Shown here one piece after another: positions 59,225-63,413 of a DNA stretch of 64,000 nucleotides (within the stretch, counting starts at the first letter, position 1; each line of letters begins with the position of its first letter). The translations under genes and the position numbers were made by a program. The stretch is from assembly GCA_963698765.1 (NCBI GenBank), contig CAVOSB010000037.1:90993-154992 (forward strand). Direction: 5' to 3'. This DNA is from an uncultured Chloroflexia bacterium (GTDB taxonomy: Bacteria > Chloroflexota > Anaerolineae > Anaerolineales > UBA4823). Under the pieces are notes generated by a model. That model was not told where the DNA came from and did no database searches. It worked only from the letters and a program-made list of their open reading frames with translations.

Positions 59225-59299
59225 AGTCAACGAAGGGAATCAAACCTTTGACCCGCCGCTTACGAAGCGGCTGCTCTGCCGTGCTGAGCTACAGCTGGC
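59225..59299 (-). tRNA. tRNA-Thr(CGU)-like sequence with imperfect acceptor stem (degenerate copy or error-affected gene)
   Basis: Its reverse complement matches the tRNA at 63341-63413 from the D-stem through the anticodon arm (GCCGC-TTCGTAA-GCGGC) and the T-arm. However, the acceptor halves (GCCAGCTG / CGTTGAC) do not pair cleanly, showing one mismatch and one extra base. One T-stem pair is also A-C. Confidence 0.5.
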
Positions 59300-59404
59300 G
59301 CTTACCGCCACCTAAGGTGTTGAGCCAATTTCCATCCCCCACCATTGGGGTATTATTATTCCTGAAATTTTCATCCTTTCTCCCCGAATTACTTGACCAG
59401 CAGC

Positions 59405-60250
59405 TCAGGGTACCGGAGAGGAAACGCAACGAAAGCCAAGCTAGTCGAGGCGTTAGTCCGGGTGGATGAGTCGTGCGGTTCGCCACACGCAGGCGGAAGA
59501 TATCGGAGCGTTCCAGCACCCCCGCGGACACACCTTGTAAGTTCCCGTCGCCGGGCCAGGCGGGTTACTGTAAGGAGAGATACTGTAATATTTCACGTTC
59601 CACCAGTCGTTCACCCACTCCCAGACGTTGCCTGCCATGTCCAAAACGCCGTAGGGGCTGGCGCCCAGCGGGTAGCTGCCGACCTGGGAGTGTCGCCGAC
59701 GCATGCAGCCGTCAGAGCCAAAAATACCAGAGCACAAGTTGGACGGCATCACCCCATGGATAAGCGCGTACGGCTGTACCACGTGCCGCTTTCTCCCACT
59801 CGGCCTCTGTCGGCAGGCGCTTGCCGGCCCAGGCGCAGTAGTCGCGGGCATTGTACCAGGAGACGTAGATCACCGGGTAGTTGGCGTAGGTTGGGTTGTC
59901 AAAGTAGGAAGAGCGGGTGTATGAGGAGTTGTTTTCAGGCGCAGGGCAGGCGCCGGCAGCCACGCACCCGGCATATTGGGCGTTGGTGACTTCGTATTTG
60001 TCGATGTAGTAAGCATCCAGGTAGACAGCGTGCAGTGGCAGCTCGTAGCTGTTGCACAGGAGTATCCGCCGTTGTGGTTCGGGTCGCAGCCCATCTGGAA
60101 CTCGCCAGCTGGGATGAAAACCATGTCTGGGTAATCCCTGGTAACGAATGGCAGGTATATGATGTGTGGATCCTCCGCCGGTTCATTTCCCATTGGAGAA
60201 AACATGAAAGTAACTAACAACATTGCGCTGGCAAAACTCCAGTTCTTCAT
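59405..60250 (-). pseudogene. secreted formylglycine-generating-enzyme (SUMF1/FGE-sulfatase) domain protein, at least 5 frame breaks
   Basis: I traced pieces in three frames. They read MKNWSFASAMLLVTFMFS...[106 protein letters not shown], and LRVANR...LGFRCVSSPVP to the stop at 59405-59407. Confidence 0.75.
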
Positions 60251-61083
60251 GACCGCCTCCCCAAAATCAAAAACCCCAGCCGATTAATCGCCAGGATTAA
60301 GATGTTATTATACGATGTACCGCCACTACCCTGGCGGTGGGCTGGAATGATTTTCATTTCCATCCATTTTTATAATTGTAAAGGGTAATTTTACAAAGTA
60401 AATTAAATTCCAGAACTCAATATTTGCCTTCTGGGGCTAAAAAATGGGATTATTTCCGTGAGGGCTACCTCACGTCTCCTTGCATATCCAAAACGCATAC
60501 TGCCAGTACCCAACACCTCTCCGGGCTCTCATGCGTTCTGAAGTGCTTTTCTTGTTACTTGTCTTCCGATTTTCCTGGGGAGTGGGGATTGTATCGGTTG
60601 CTCCTCCTGTGTAAAATGCTGGAACAGAGCCAGAAGGAGTTCTTTCGAAGCGATTTAAAATTCGAGCATAATCCATAGTAATCCAAGTCTTTATAAAAAA
60701 AAGCACCCCTGAACTTTTTCTGCTCTAATGAGAACAAAGAAATAATGCGGTTTCTTGTCATCAATTTTCCCAATAAAATACCAATATCATCTGTATAAAA
60801 TTGAGACACGAACAGGTTTACTTTTCCCAGACTCTGATTATGTGAAAATTAATTCATGACCTTTATCAAGAAGCAAATTCGCACCACCAAGGCTCTAGAA
60901 GTCATCAAACGCTCGAAATAAGGGATGAACATCACGGATGGCCGGTTATGAAGGCGGCAGTGCCATAGCACAGGGATATAATTAAGAGACCAGTATATGA
61001 ATAGATAACAGGCAGGTTGCCACGGTGAGACAGGATCGGAAGAAATCCATCTCTATATAATCCTGTTCGAAAGGGAGGGGAAA

Positions 61084-62934
61084 ATGAATAGATCGAATTG
61101 CCTTCCAGCGGAGATGTTATTCCGTATAGGGATCTTCATCCTTATCTTAGGCACGCCTTTTCAAGTTGGAAACTCATCAGCTGCGCTTCACCCGCATGCA
61201 GAAATCTTGTCACCAAACGAAGTGATCAGCTGGGTTGGGCTCAGCTCAGGGGATTGGAACACGCCAGACAACTGGAGCACGGAAAGCGTCCCTGGAGCCA
61301 ACGACGATGTGAGCATCGGAGCAGGGAATACAGTCAACTTCTCATCGGGCACGAGCACGATCAACAGCCTTAACTGCCAGGGCACTTTAACTGTCAGCGG
61401 CGGGAGCTTCACGGTAAGTGGAGGATCTGCGATCAACGAGCTTAAAGTGAAGGGCGCCGACGCCTATTTCGACGGCACAACAACCATCATGTTTCTCTAT
61501 TTGGAAGGCACGAACGCAAATGAAGGCGTTTTAGGCGGCAACGGCAGGATAAACATAACTTCTTACATCAATTGGCTGGGCGCGGGGAGTGATCCTGGCG
61601 GGGGTGGTCGGAAATCCAGCCGAATTGTCAGCAATGGAAGCATTGTCATTGCAGACTCAGCCACCGGACTTATCGAGGCTCGATATGATGGCTACGATGC
61701 CCCATATGGCGCCGTCCGCCTGGCAGGCTTCCTGGATAATTTTGGGGATCTCGAATTGAGAGGCGCCTTGGAAACGATGGCGGATTTTTCCGAGTTAGCC
61801 AATAAGCCCAGCGGGAGCATCACGATCCCGGCTGAATATGATGCGATCAACAGGCTCGATGTAAGAATTAACAATGAAGGACTGATCTTACTTGATGCCC
61901 CCGGCTCGTTCGACTTGCCGTATATCCACAATTGGGGAATGATCAAGACCACTGGCGGTGAAATCAACCTGAATTTCATTGAGAACAGCGGCCGCCTGGA
62001 AGTCAACGGTGATGGAATTCTGCACTTCAACAATCCGATTGCGCTGATCAACCCCTGGTCAGTGATCGTGGGTACAGGCACGGTCAAATTTAGCGATGGA
62101 GATGGGCTTACGGATCTGAATGTGGATGGCGTATACAACGTTACGAACACGGTAATCGAGGATCAGGATGCCCTGGTCAAAATGCTTCCAACTGCCACAG
62201 TCCAAATAAGCAATTTAACCGTCAGCGCCGGGCGAATAGAGCTGACCGAACCCCTAGCGCTGAACGACCTGACCATTTCGCAATTACCTGGGCAAATCCC
62301 AGGAATACTGACCGGCAGCGGGCCAGTCACCGTCAATGGTACGTTCAACTGGTCAGCCGGTACGATGGAAGGGTCCGGGGATACGTCCGTTAACGGGGTA
62401 ATGAGTATTTTTGGAAGCGCTGTGAAGTCCCTGGGCACAAGCGGAAAGCCACGGGACCTGTACCTGAATGGAACAGGGAGCTGGTCTGCGGGGGACATTA
62501 ATACCTCCAGCGGGTCGTTGATCACGATATACCCCGGCGCCGACTTGACTGCCAGCGGCACGCTGATAGGAGACCTGCATAATCGAGGGACGCTCCAGGT
62601 TGGGACTTCAACGGGTATCCTTTCGGTAGGCAGCAATTACACTCAGGATGCAACCGGAGTGCTCAATATGGAGATCGGTGGTGCAGGAGCAGGAGAGTTC
62701 GACCAGCTCAACATTTCTAGTATCGCGACTTTAGGGGGCACCCTCAACGTTGGCTTGATCAACGGTTATTCATTGATCAACCAAGGCATTGATATTCTAA
62801 CCTATGGGAATCGCAACGGCGAGTTCACAATGCACGTTCTACCCGCAGGCACTCATCACACCTACAATGCAAACGGGCTGACCATCTCAGGTGGTGTCTC
62901 GATCTACTTACCGTTGATCTGCAAGCCAAATTAG
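61084..62934 (+). CDS. large secreted Gly/Thr/Asn-rich beta-helix-type repeat protein
   Basis: 616-aa ORF with an N-terminal signal-like segment (LFRIGIFILILGTPFQVGNSSA). It has repeated G(T)L(T)VSGG-type strands and a C-terminal GEFDQLNISSIATLGGTLNVGLINGY module. No catalytic motif was recognised. Confidence 0.6.
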   Translation: MNRSNCLPAEMLFRIGIFILILGTPFQVGNSSAALHPHAEILSPNEVISWVGLSSGDWNTPDNWSTESVPGANDDVSIGAGNTVNFSSGTSTINSLNCQGTLTVSGGSFTVSGGSAINELKVKGADAYFDGTTTIMFLYLEGTNANEGVLGGNGRINITSYINWLGAGSDPGGGGRKSSRIVSNGSIVIADSATGLIEARYDGYDAPYGAVRLAGFLDNFGDLELRGALETMADFSELANKPSGSITIPAEYDAINRLDVRINNEGLILLDAPGSFDLPYIHNWGMIKTTGGEINLNFIENSGRLEVNGDGILHFNNPIALINPWSVIVGTGTVKFSDGDGLTDLNVDGVYNVTNTVIEDQDALVKMLPTATVQISNLTVSAGRIELTEPLALNDLTISQLPGQIPGILTGSGPVTVNGTFNWSAGTMEGSGDTSVNGVMSIFGSAVKSLGTSGKPRDLYLNGTGSWSAGDINTSSGSLITIYPGADLTASGTLIGDLHNRGTLQVGTSTGILSVGSNYTQDATGVLNMEIGGAGAGEFDQLNISSIATLGGTLNVGLINGYSLINQGIDILTYGNRNGEFTMHVLPAGTHHTYNANGLTISGGVSIYLPLICKPN

Positions 62935-63300
62935 GCCGCAGCGAGAATTCTCTGGGTTTGGAATAGCCTGCCTGCGTCTCCCTCGATACCAGTAGGTATT
63001 AGCCCTGTTCACTCGGTAAGACACATGGCAACCGCCTGAATTGCGCCTTTTGGCCAGCTGAATCTGATAACGCCGGCTAAGCTCCGCGGTCAAATCTTCG
63101 ATCGCTTCGACTTGCAGCACAGCCAGGTAATCATGAAAATCGCGGAGCTCCTGTGAATTACACTGCAGGATTTTTGGAGACAGACCCTGGGACTTACGGT
63201 CCAAGAGAAAACCATCCATGACTTGAAGAATCGACCCTGATATAATTTCCAGAGTCAGCCGGTCTACCGGGTGTCCTGCATAAGAAACGCTCCCTTCCAC
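62908..63300 (-). pseudogene. tyrosine recombinase/integrase, N-terminal SAM-like domain only (truncated)
   Basis: FLLDRKSQGLSPKILQCNSQELRDFHDYL...IEDLTAELSRRYQIQLAKR...NRANTYWY resembles the core-binding domain of XerC/D-type integrases. There is no catalytic domain, because the ORF runs into the 3-prime end of the convergent 616-aa gene. Confidence 0.5.
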
Positions 63301-63340
63301 CCGCCATAGGTAGGGGAAGGGAGTCGAAAAACGCTGAAAG

Positions 63341-63413
63341 AGCCACCGAAGGGAATCGAACCCTTGACCCGCCGCTTACGAAGCGGCTGCTCTGCCGGCT
63401 GAGCTACGGTGGC
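63341..63413 (-). tRNA. tRNA-Thr (anticodon CGT)
   Basis: The reverse complement GCCACCG-TA-GCTC-AGCCGGCA-GAGC-A-GCCGC-TTCGTAA-GCGGC-GGGTC-AAGGG-TTCGATT-CCCTT-CGGTGGC-T folds as a perfect 73-nt cloverleaf. Confidence 0.9.

Follow-up and report, generated by a model that had tools for sequence, protein, structure and literature searches.

The closest described counterparts of the locus reported here are the islands catalogued in the Islander survey, among which those with an anticodon-centred phage-type attachment site (attP) form the larger of the two tallied site classes (2083 of 3919 islands; PMC4383910). The Islander pipeline is described as rejecting matches located within a called full-length tRNA gene (PMC4383910), and the configuration in which a whole tRNA is displaced may therefore be discarded by design and under-counted. 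The mis-calling of attachment (att) sites as tRNA genes is a known annotation problem (PMC9897764). In this study we analyzed a stretch of 64,000 nucleotides (hereafter the window) of contig CAVOSB010000037.1 of an uncultured Chloroflexia bacterium, which contains an islet of 4.04 kb, located between an intact tRNA-Thr(CGU) gene (63341-63413, minus strand) and a full-length pseudo-copy of this gene (59225-59299, minus strand). The islet is very likely a decayed tRNA-integrated element. Taken as a whole, it very probably represents the remnant of a site-specific element that recombined into tRNA-Thr(CGU) between the gene of a GT4 glycosyltransferase and udk (uridine kinase). An old tRNA-targeted element lacking mobility had been proposed in the initial annotation of this DNA, and this proposal is supported by the presence of empty sites in relatives, the anomalous composition of the islet, the pseudogene character of the distal tRNA copy and a repeat comprising a 3' tRNA fragment in the sister allele L081.

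Empty site and the two tRNA-Thr copies

A search with the udk protein yielded 80 loci, essentially all from metagenome-assembled genomes (MAGs) of Anaerolineales/Chloroflexota (66-80% identity). The tRNA was found in 70 related loci, upstream of udk and on the same strand, and in approximately 60 loci GT4 is located directly upstream of the tRNA in divergent orientation; this synteny agrees with the earlier impression that both flanking genes are core genes. When the udk-GT4 interval is compared across these relatives, the distance between the tRNA and udk does not exceed about 210 bp in 53 of the 70 loci, i.e. the site is empty. It is also empty in the closest relative, represented by the Logan contigs L105, L106 and L108 (udk 86% identical), whose gene order is ParA, GT4, 59 bp, one tRNA-Thr(CGU), 68 bp, udk, VTT and M20. 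By blastn, positions 64000-63341 of the window align to 7271-7932 of L105, and positions 59304-56187 to 7855-10956. Both tRNA copies of the window end on the single tRNA of L105 (7860-7932, to which the intact copy aligns), which defines the insert as 59300-63340. A second copy of tRNA-Thr(CGU) was present in none of the 70 related loci; two copies were found only in near-identical strains of the window. Judged from this colinearity, the ancestral locus comprised GT4, one tRNA-Thr(CGU) and udk.

Read along the minus strand, the islet consists of the intact tRNA, a 39-nt spacer with a 9-bp hairpin, an open reading frame (ORF) of 130 aa, a convergent gene of 616 aa, an AT-rich spacer of 833 bp, a broken FGE gene, a second hairpin and the pseudo-tRNA, with udk located 72 bp further. 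The features of the locus are as follows:

58512-59150, minus strand: udk (uridine kinase), core flank (PF00485, 1.2e-40; syntenic with tRNA-Thr in 70 loci)
59225-59299, minus strand: pseudo-tRNA-Thr(CGU), attR-type junction, full-length, promoterless and decaying (ARAGORN, Rfam, fold, colinearity with L105)
59334-59351, no strand assigned: GC hairpin CCCCA..TGGGG between the FGE stop codon and the pseudo-tRNA (terminator-like scan)
59408-60250, minus strand: FGE/SUMF1-domain pseudogene (Pfam PF03781 on fragments)
60251-61083, no strand assigned: AT-rich divergent intergenic spacer, 833 bp (GC 41.4%)
61084-62934, plus strand: gene of a 616-aa secreted beta-helix protein (AlphaFold2 model; intact in sister strains)
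62908-63300, minus strand: integrase stump, a 130-aa ORF whose residues 12-106 (approximately 62986-63267) are the N-terminal SAM-like core-binding domain (phmmer)
63290-63323, minus strand: 9-bp hairpin CTCCCTTCC ... GGAAGGGAG (read from the sequence)
63341-63413, minus strand: functional tRNA-Thr(CGU), attL-type junction (ancestral 5' part and promoter, regenerated gene; ARAGORN, Rfam, fold)
63433-63461, minus strand: promoter-like site TTGTTA-17-TATAAT upstream of the intact tRNA, in the ancestral 5' flank (promoter scan, 10/12 match)
63471-64000, plus strand: GT4 glycosyltransferase, core flank, 5' part running past the end of the window (PF13439 and PF13579)

ARAGORN called one tRNA-Thr(cgt) gene at 63340-63413 and another at 59222-59299, each on the minus strand. 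The first of these is intact, as initially annotated: it matches the full Rfam tRNA model (67.1 bits), its minimum free energy (MFE) fold is a cloverleaf (-34.6 kcal/mol), and several other Anaerolineales genomes contain a tRNA-Thr(CGU) with exactly this sequence (100% identity). The two copies form a 73-nt direct repeat of 85% identity, in the same orientation. The second copy passes the Rfam gathering score locally, with 35.7 bits over model positions 6-65 only, and its MFE fold is not a cloverleaf. In comparison with the intact copy, it carries one substitution and a 1-nt insertion in the 5' acceptor strand, one extra A in the D-loop, a G to A change in the T-stem and a C56 to U change in the T-loop, and its 3' acceptor strand is substituted at two positions. 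Only 3 of its 7 acceptor pairs are in register, compared with 7 of 7 in the intact copy. In all 63 of the 63 tRNA-Thr(CGU) genes of relatives, the seven acceptor pairs are retained, in several cases by means of compensatory changes, and the third position of the T-loop is a C. Given the damage to the acceptor and T arm and the partial Rfam match, the distal copy is a pseudogene despite the ARAGORN call. The unpaired acceptor reported earlier was thus seen again, while the description of the T arm as nearly identical proved slightly generous (two changes). The unusual extent of the distal repeat, which spans the whole tRNA, was also reproduced, since the window and the sister allele L082 both have it at full length.

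The ancestral flanks are divided between the two copies. The 5' flank of the intact copy, cccttgtataatctgcgccgcag, which carries the promoter-like site, is identical in the empty-site relative L105 and resembles those of L010, L011 and L025. A promoter scan of the minus strand upstream of the pseudo-copy revealed no promoter-like site, and the conserved TATAAT flank is absent there. Conversely, the 3' flank of the pseudo-copy, leading into udk, is similar to that of the empty site in L105 (z=4.2), and the 3' flank of the intact copy shows no similarity to it (z=0). An ancestral 5' flank on the intact copy, together with an ancestral 3' flank on the pseudo-copy, is the outcome expected from site-specific recombination within the tRNA.

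The composition of the islet is patchy. The mean G+C content of the 64-kb window is 47.6%. A windowed calculation confirmed the visual impression that the FGE segment is richer in GC than its flanks (56.5%, the 99.4th percentile of windows of the same size within the 64 kb). The beta-helix gene (52.4%) lies at the 97.7th percentile of such windows, and the spacer at 60251-61083 (41.4%) at the 0.3rd. By tetranucleotide usage, the most deviant part of the entire 64 kb is 61501-63500 (z=2.9).

Integrase stump and related elements

The 130-aa ORF matched nothing in Pfam (even at E<=10, including the SAM-domain models), PHROGs, NCBIfam or the PDB sequences, and a word-indexed homolog search retrieved only two near-identical proteins. 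The ORF was resolved only by an exhaustive phmmer search against 1.84e9 protein representatives (cut-off E<=1e-3), which gave 155 matches, including many proteins of 300-315 aa that were matched at their N termini. The best full-length match, P0003 (308 aa), shares 48% identity over 93 aa with residues 12-104 of the stump (E 1.8e-17). P0003 contains PF00589 at residues 131-289 plus SAM-like domains. With the NCBIfam models of XerA, XerC and XerD it reaches 130-160 bits, which falls short of every curated cut-off; it is at most about 30% identical to the best phage integrases among the matches listed. The stump carries the conserved N-domain motif RN-GGCH-YR..TYW. According to the initial annotation, failure of this ORF in detection by hidden Markov models would refute the proposal. 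The profile libraries did miss it, and that failure is one of sensitivity, since the exhaustive phmmer search is led by full-length tyrosine recombinases. Homology thus identifies the 130-aa ORF as what is left of a Xer-like tyrosine integrase, namely its N-terminal core-binding domain.

The homology of the stump ends at residues ~106-129 (62932-62986), at the stop codon (62934) of the convergent 616-aa gene, as had been noticed earlier for the ORF itself. What is left of the integrase in the islet is an N-terminal remnant of about 95 aa, devoid of the R..K..H-x-x-R..H/W..Y catalytic domain. A tblastn search of 59000-63500 with three full-length family members detected no remnant of the catalytic domain, nor any integrase remnant beside the pseudo-tRNA. 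No nucleotide match of the islet was found in the phage collection. The hairpin at 63290-63323, in the 39 nt that separate the tRNA 3' end from the stump ORF, overlaps the GTG start of this ORF and is kept in the sister assemblies L081, L082, L089 and L090.

Loci of related integrases were located with a trimmed five-sequence alignment of the N-domain. Relatives of this integrase reside in intact elements within the same tRNA, with direct repeats starting at the anticodon stem. One of them is L093 (272-kb JGI contig Ga0116157_10000005), in which udk is followed by a 61-bp repeat and a gene of a 313-aa integrase; about 8.7 kb further, the identical 61 bp form the 3' part of an intact tRNA-Thr(CGU). 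This perfect direct repeat extends from the 5' strand of the anticodon stem (tRNA nt ~25) to 11 nt past the 3' end of the tRNA. Among the cargo of the 8.7-kb element are two sigma factors, the nuclease Mrr and DUF4417. At 18370-18403 (plus strand) of this contig, inside the element and 146 bp away from the functional tRNA-Thr, nt 1-34 of the tRNA recur exactly but in inverted orientation; this 5' fragment ends in the anticodon loop and suggests a past inversion or a secondary recombination at the same crossover point. Near its tRNA-proximal end (17480-17564) there are three tandem 22-nt units, each with the hairpin TGTCG-TTTTGGG-CGACA, which may represent a regulatory array or sites for arm-type binding.

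In L103, udk is followed, in this order, by a 227-aa gene, tRNA nt 23-74 and a gene of a 312-aa integrase. The contig encoding P0003 (L083) is phage-like, with genes of cI-type helix-turn-helix and ribbon-helix-helix proteins, and a 42-nt exact 3' fragment of tRNA-Thr is located 81 bp upstream of the integrase gene. Two further loci contain complete tRNA genes beside integrase stumps: L091 (50-661), with tRNA-Thr(CGU) identical to that of the window and a 155-aa stump, and L101 (473-1040), with tRNA-Thr(UGU) and a 162-aa stump. Both stumps are divergent, lie approximately 75-90 bp from the 5' end of the tRNA, and are truncated just past the N-terminal domain, as is that of the window; the tRNA-stump spacers of L091 and L101 are homologous and include the palindrome CCCATATATGGG. 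N-terminal stumps next to tRNA-Thr thus recur in no fewer than three independent lineages (the window, L091 and L101), which may reflect ascertainment bias or retention. The 5' limit of the tRNA-like block adjoining the integrase varies within the family, from nt 32 in L083, through 25-26 in L093 and L081 and 23 in L103, to 1 in L091. In the IMG/VR viral contigs L084 (tRNA-Arg-CCG) and L087 (tRNA-Met) the integrase gene follows the tRNA on the same strand after ~40 nt, and this geometry and spacer are those of the window. A tblastx comparison of the islet with L083, L091, L093, L101 and L103 revealed no shared cargo beyond the tRNA, udk and the integrase N-domain.

The GT4 / tRNA-Thr(CGU) / udk junction is a recurrent hotspot of insertion and decay in Anaerolineales. 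In 17 relatives (L015, L016, L018, L074, L032, L037, L052, L067, L073, L080 and others), 0.56-3.4 kb of unrelated, mostly low-GC DNA separates the tRNA from udk; the G+C content of the insert and of the locus is, for example, 49% and 62% in L015, and 46% and 58% in L073. The products encoded by these inserts include membrane proteins of the GT-C-like and EamA types, regulators of the LuxR type and small unknown proteins. Neither an integrase nor an att repeat (blastn-short, E<1) was found in them. In L073, a 53-nt remnant of an integrase gene (6939-6991; 83% identical to L091) lies between GT4 and the 5' end of tRNA-Thr, i.e. on the opposite side of the tRNA from the stump of the window.

Sister alleles, cargo and rival explanations

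The islet is present at 93-99% identity in four other assemblies (L081, L082, L089 and L090), with the same stump, the same truncation point and the same 616-aa gene. The distal tRNA copy is reached in three of the five assemblies (the window, L081 and L082). It is full length in the window and in L082, which have three changes in common. Each also has four changes of its own, and since the changes occur all along the sequence, the copy of their shared ancestor was full length and almost perfect. The 45-nt identical center of the pseudo-tRNA, once regarded as a candidate att core, was dropped, since the changes are distributed throughout when L082 is included and the identical core in the window alone is a small-sample effect. 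The distal copy of L081 comprises only tRNA nt 26-76 (51 nt, 2 mismatches) and has the same 5' boundary as the L093 repeat; the sequence upstream of this fragment is unrelated, apart from a possible GCCA..GTA trace. Positions 3700-4321 of L081 are only 64-85% identical to 59000-59800 of the window, compared with 98-99% in the flanks. This patch, which covers the 3' half of the FGE gene, the att repeat and the 5' end of udk, is either a recombinationally imported allele or a product of chimeric co-assembly. The GC hairpin at 59334-59351 is common to both islet alleles, as shown by an alignment of L081 and L082.

The FGE gene of the window is multiply broken, as stated in the initial annotation: compared with the intact 280-aa allele of L081, it contains three frameshifts and three in-frame stop codons, and no continuous ORF. 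Its fragments score 72.7 and 44.9 bits with PF03781, and the intact allele 194.9 bits. The gene of L082 has three frameshifts, two of which occur at positions other than those of the window. Long-read indel errors were considered as the source of these breaks and judged unlikely, in view of the stop codons and dense substitutions in the FGE gene and the absence of indels from the adjacent 1851-bp gene. FGE-domain genes with 47-54% identity to that of the islet are found in the relatives L047 (7495-8340) and L059 (6530-7900), beyond GT4 at a distance of a few kb, adjoining tRNA-Gly(CCC). Such paralogs are common neighbors of the region, and hence the FGE copy of the islet need not be exotic cargo.

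The AT-rich stretch, first estimated at about 830 bp, measures 833 bp; its ORFs have no Pfam match, no Rfam match was found in it, and its identity among the strains is 88-98%. The adjacent 616-aa gene (1851 bp) is free of indels in L081 and L082, with a ratio of nonsynonymous to synonymous polymorphism (pN/pS) of ~0.3; it is intact and, on these values, still under selection. The initial description of its product as a beta-helix protein is in agreement with the AlphaFold2 model, an all-beta solenoid (predicted local distance difference test, pLDDT, 75; predicted template-modeling score, pTM, 0.75), whose best PDB matches are all autotransporter passenger beta-helices, although weak ones (E 2e-3, template-modeling score 0.2-0.3). 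Among 5.8 billion proteins, only one other homolog was detected (50% identity).

The integrase would be expected to perform strand exchange in or beside the anticodon stem-loop, which would place the element in the anticodon-centred class of tDNA sites. Its attP would have carried tRNA-like sequence both 5' and 3' of the crossover and, in the lineage of the window, perhaps the whole gene; the sequence 5' of the crossover would be unconstrained in attP, and some family elements may carry an entire tRNA there. Integration of such an element would generate two full-length copies. The left one, supplied with the chromosomal promoter, would be functional, and the right one, promoterless and redundant, would undergo neutral decay. 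The catalytic domain of the integrase, next to the 3' end of the convergent beta-helix gene, may then have been lost in a later deletion; other genes of the element were presumably deleted as well, the islet thereby being fixed in place. The beta-helix gene would have remained under purifying selection, and the FGE-like gene appears to be dying in the strain of the window, while it is intact in the sister allele. A literature search for attP sites with an entire tRNA gene, or for tRNA-Thr integrases of Anaerolineae, yielded nothing usable.

For the full length of the distal copy, we tentatively favor a whole-tRNA attP over a secondary event, at a probability slightly short of even. A secondary origin is somewhat unlikely and ranks below it: classical integration would have left a 3' fragment at the udk side, as in L081, and the lineage of the window and L082 would have gained the 5' half later. 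This may have occurred through a second integration/deletion event involving an element with a complete tRNA by its integrase (L091 type), or through import, by homologous recombination, of another allele spanning the 3' part of FGE, attR and the 5' part of udk; both routes are possible. Such an origin would fit the canonical 51-nt attR of L081, with the 5' boundary of the L093 repeat and an intact FGE gene, and the divergent patch at 59000-59800 (64-85% against 98-99% in its flanks) has the signature of recombinational replacement; moreover, the inverted tRNA nt 1-34 of L093 indicates that 5' fragments do get shuffled in this family. However, no integrase remnant adjoins the pseudo-tRNA, and L081 itself is possibly chimeric, being an N-gapped co-assembly. 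Furthermore, where the 5' end of the tRNA would lie, L081 retains GCCA..GTA preceded by 5 nt of similar flank; the match is weak, and it hints at descent of L081 from a full-length copy that lost its D-arm. It is improbable that the islet documents a Chloroflexota-specific Xer-like subfamily that duplicates its target by means of a whole-tRNA-Thr attP and whose stumps are retained as stand-alone att-site-binding proteins; in that case the stumps could, for instance, block further integration instead of being dead remnants.

A tandem tRNA-Thr(CGU) pair split by a foreign insertion, with subsequent decay of one copy, had been raised in the initial annotation and is very improbable. Both copies are indeed full length and in the same orientation, but none of the 70 related loci has two copies, the empty site of the closest relative has one tRNA, and the distal copy is deprived of the conserved promoter and 5' flank. 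Nor would a split pair account for the L081 allele, with the 3' part only, or for an integrase remnant that abuts the intact tRNA at the ~40-nt spacing seen in elements in which the integrase gene follows the tRNA. The least probable explanation, with hardly any chance of being correct, is an artefact, i.e. duplication of the tRNA, breakage of the FGE gene or truncation of the integrase by misassembly or MAG indel errors. The window and L082 do resemble long-read MAG contigs. In addition, the M20 peptidase gene of the window (56473-57837, minus strand), located 3' of the DedA/VTT gene, is broken up into three ORFs that overlap (68, 291 and 165 aa) and match Peptidase_M20 and M20_dimer, and its ortholog in L105 is one intact gene of 454 aa; this split is either a second pseudogene or a sign of assembly indel errors. 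Against an artefact, the arrangement of tRNA, stump and beta-helix gene is common to five independent assemblies, not one indel occurs in the 1851 bp of the beta-helix gene in L081 and L082, and the FGE gene combines in-frame stops with heavy substitution rather than homopolymer indels alone.

Several observations weigh against a decayed element with a whole-tRNA attP. Its past mobility is deduced, because no functional integrase, excisionase or circular form is demonstrable; with the integrase truncated, present-day excision would be expected to be absent. The nearest relatives of the stump whose context is known (L083, L091, L101, L103 and L093) have the geometry opposite to that of the window: the integrase gene lies at the udk-proximal end, its start directed toward the tRNA-like block on the 5' side of the latter. 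The order of tRNA and then integrase occurs only in more distant members (L084, 30% identical to the stump), a caveat that holds for a secondary origin of the full-length copy as well. The presence of the 3' fragment only in L081 implies that the full length may be derived and not ancestral, and the N-gapped scaffold and the 64-85% identical patch imply that L081, a source of the canonical repeat, may be chimeric. Given the split M20 gene, some indels of the assembly could be errors. Finally, the sole other homolog of the beta-helix protein is chromosomal and in a non-islet context; the beta-helix gene is either retained cargo or a later passenger, and the FGE gene, too, may or may not have been original cargo.

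Comparison with known systems

The islet is a fossil integrative element in a tRNA gene, a genomic islet of an ordinary and well-known kind. Slightly unusual are the whole, decaying tRNA copy at its far end and the uncharacterized Chloroflexota subfamily of its integrase. Its significance lies mostly in cleaner annotation: the distal copy should be labelled an att-site pseudo-tRNA instead of a second tRNA-Thr(CGU) gene, the 130-aa ORF an integrase remnant, and the FGE fragments a pseudogene. Finders of tDNA islands that reject full-length matches can miss islands of this type. The hotspot is, in addition, linked to an uncharacterized Xer-like integrase subfamily with intact members, such as that of L093, which could seed genetic tools for a phylum with few.

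In several respects the islet resembles the class A islands of Islander (PMC4383910). It is a tyrosine-integrase element in a tRNA gene with the integrase abutting the tRNA, one end has the regenerated tRNA and the other a displaced copy in direct orientation, the composition is foreign, relatives contain empty sites, and the repeats of the sister allele L081 and of L093 start at the anticodon stem. It differs from these islands in being immobile, with only the N-terminal domain of the integrase, and in that the displaced copy in the strain of the window is a complete tRNA and not an end fragment; its 4 kb place it at the small end of their size range.

The L093 element shares with the islet the udk / tRNA-Thr(CGU) locus, the integrase family (the L093 protein is 36% identical to the stump and 48% to P0003) and a direct repeat that starts at the anticodon stem and reaches the tRNA 3' end. 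Unlike the islet, it has an intact integrase (313 aa), perfect repeats (61 bp) and different cargo (sigma factors, Mrr and DUF4417). Its integrase gene is located at the udk-proximal repeat and is divergent from it, whereas the stump of the window follows the intact tRNA on the same strand.

P0003 has a length (308 aa) and a two-domain layout similar to those of XerC, XerD and XerA. In contrast to these resolvases of chromosome dimers, it is found by tRNA genes, together with direct repeats and phage-like genes, and the copy of the window is devoid of the catalytic domain. With the mis-called attR sites described previously (PMC9897764), the distal copy shares that it is called as a tRNA, here by ARAGORN, and is nevertheless a non-functional att-site remnant. 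Unlike those cases, its 5' half does derive from a tRNA (24 of 26 nt in L082) and is not a fortuitous flank.

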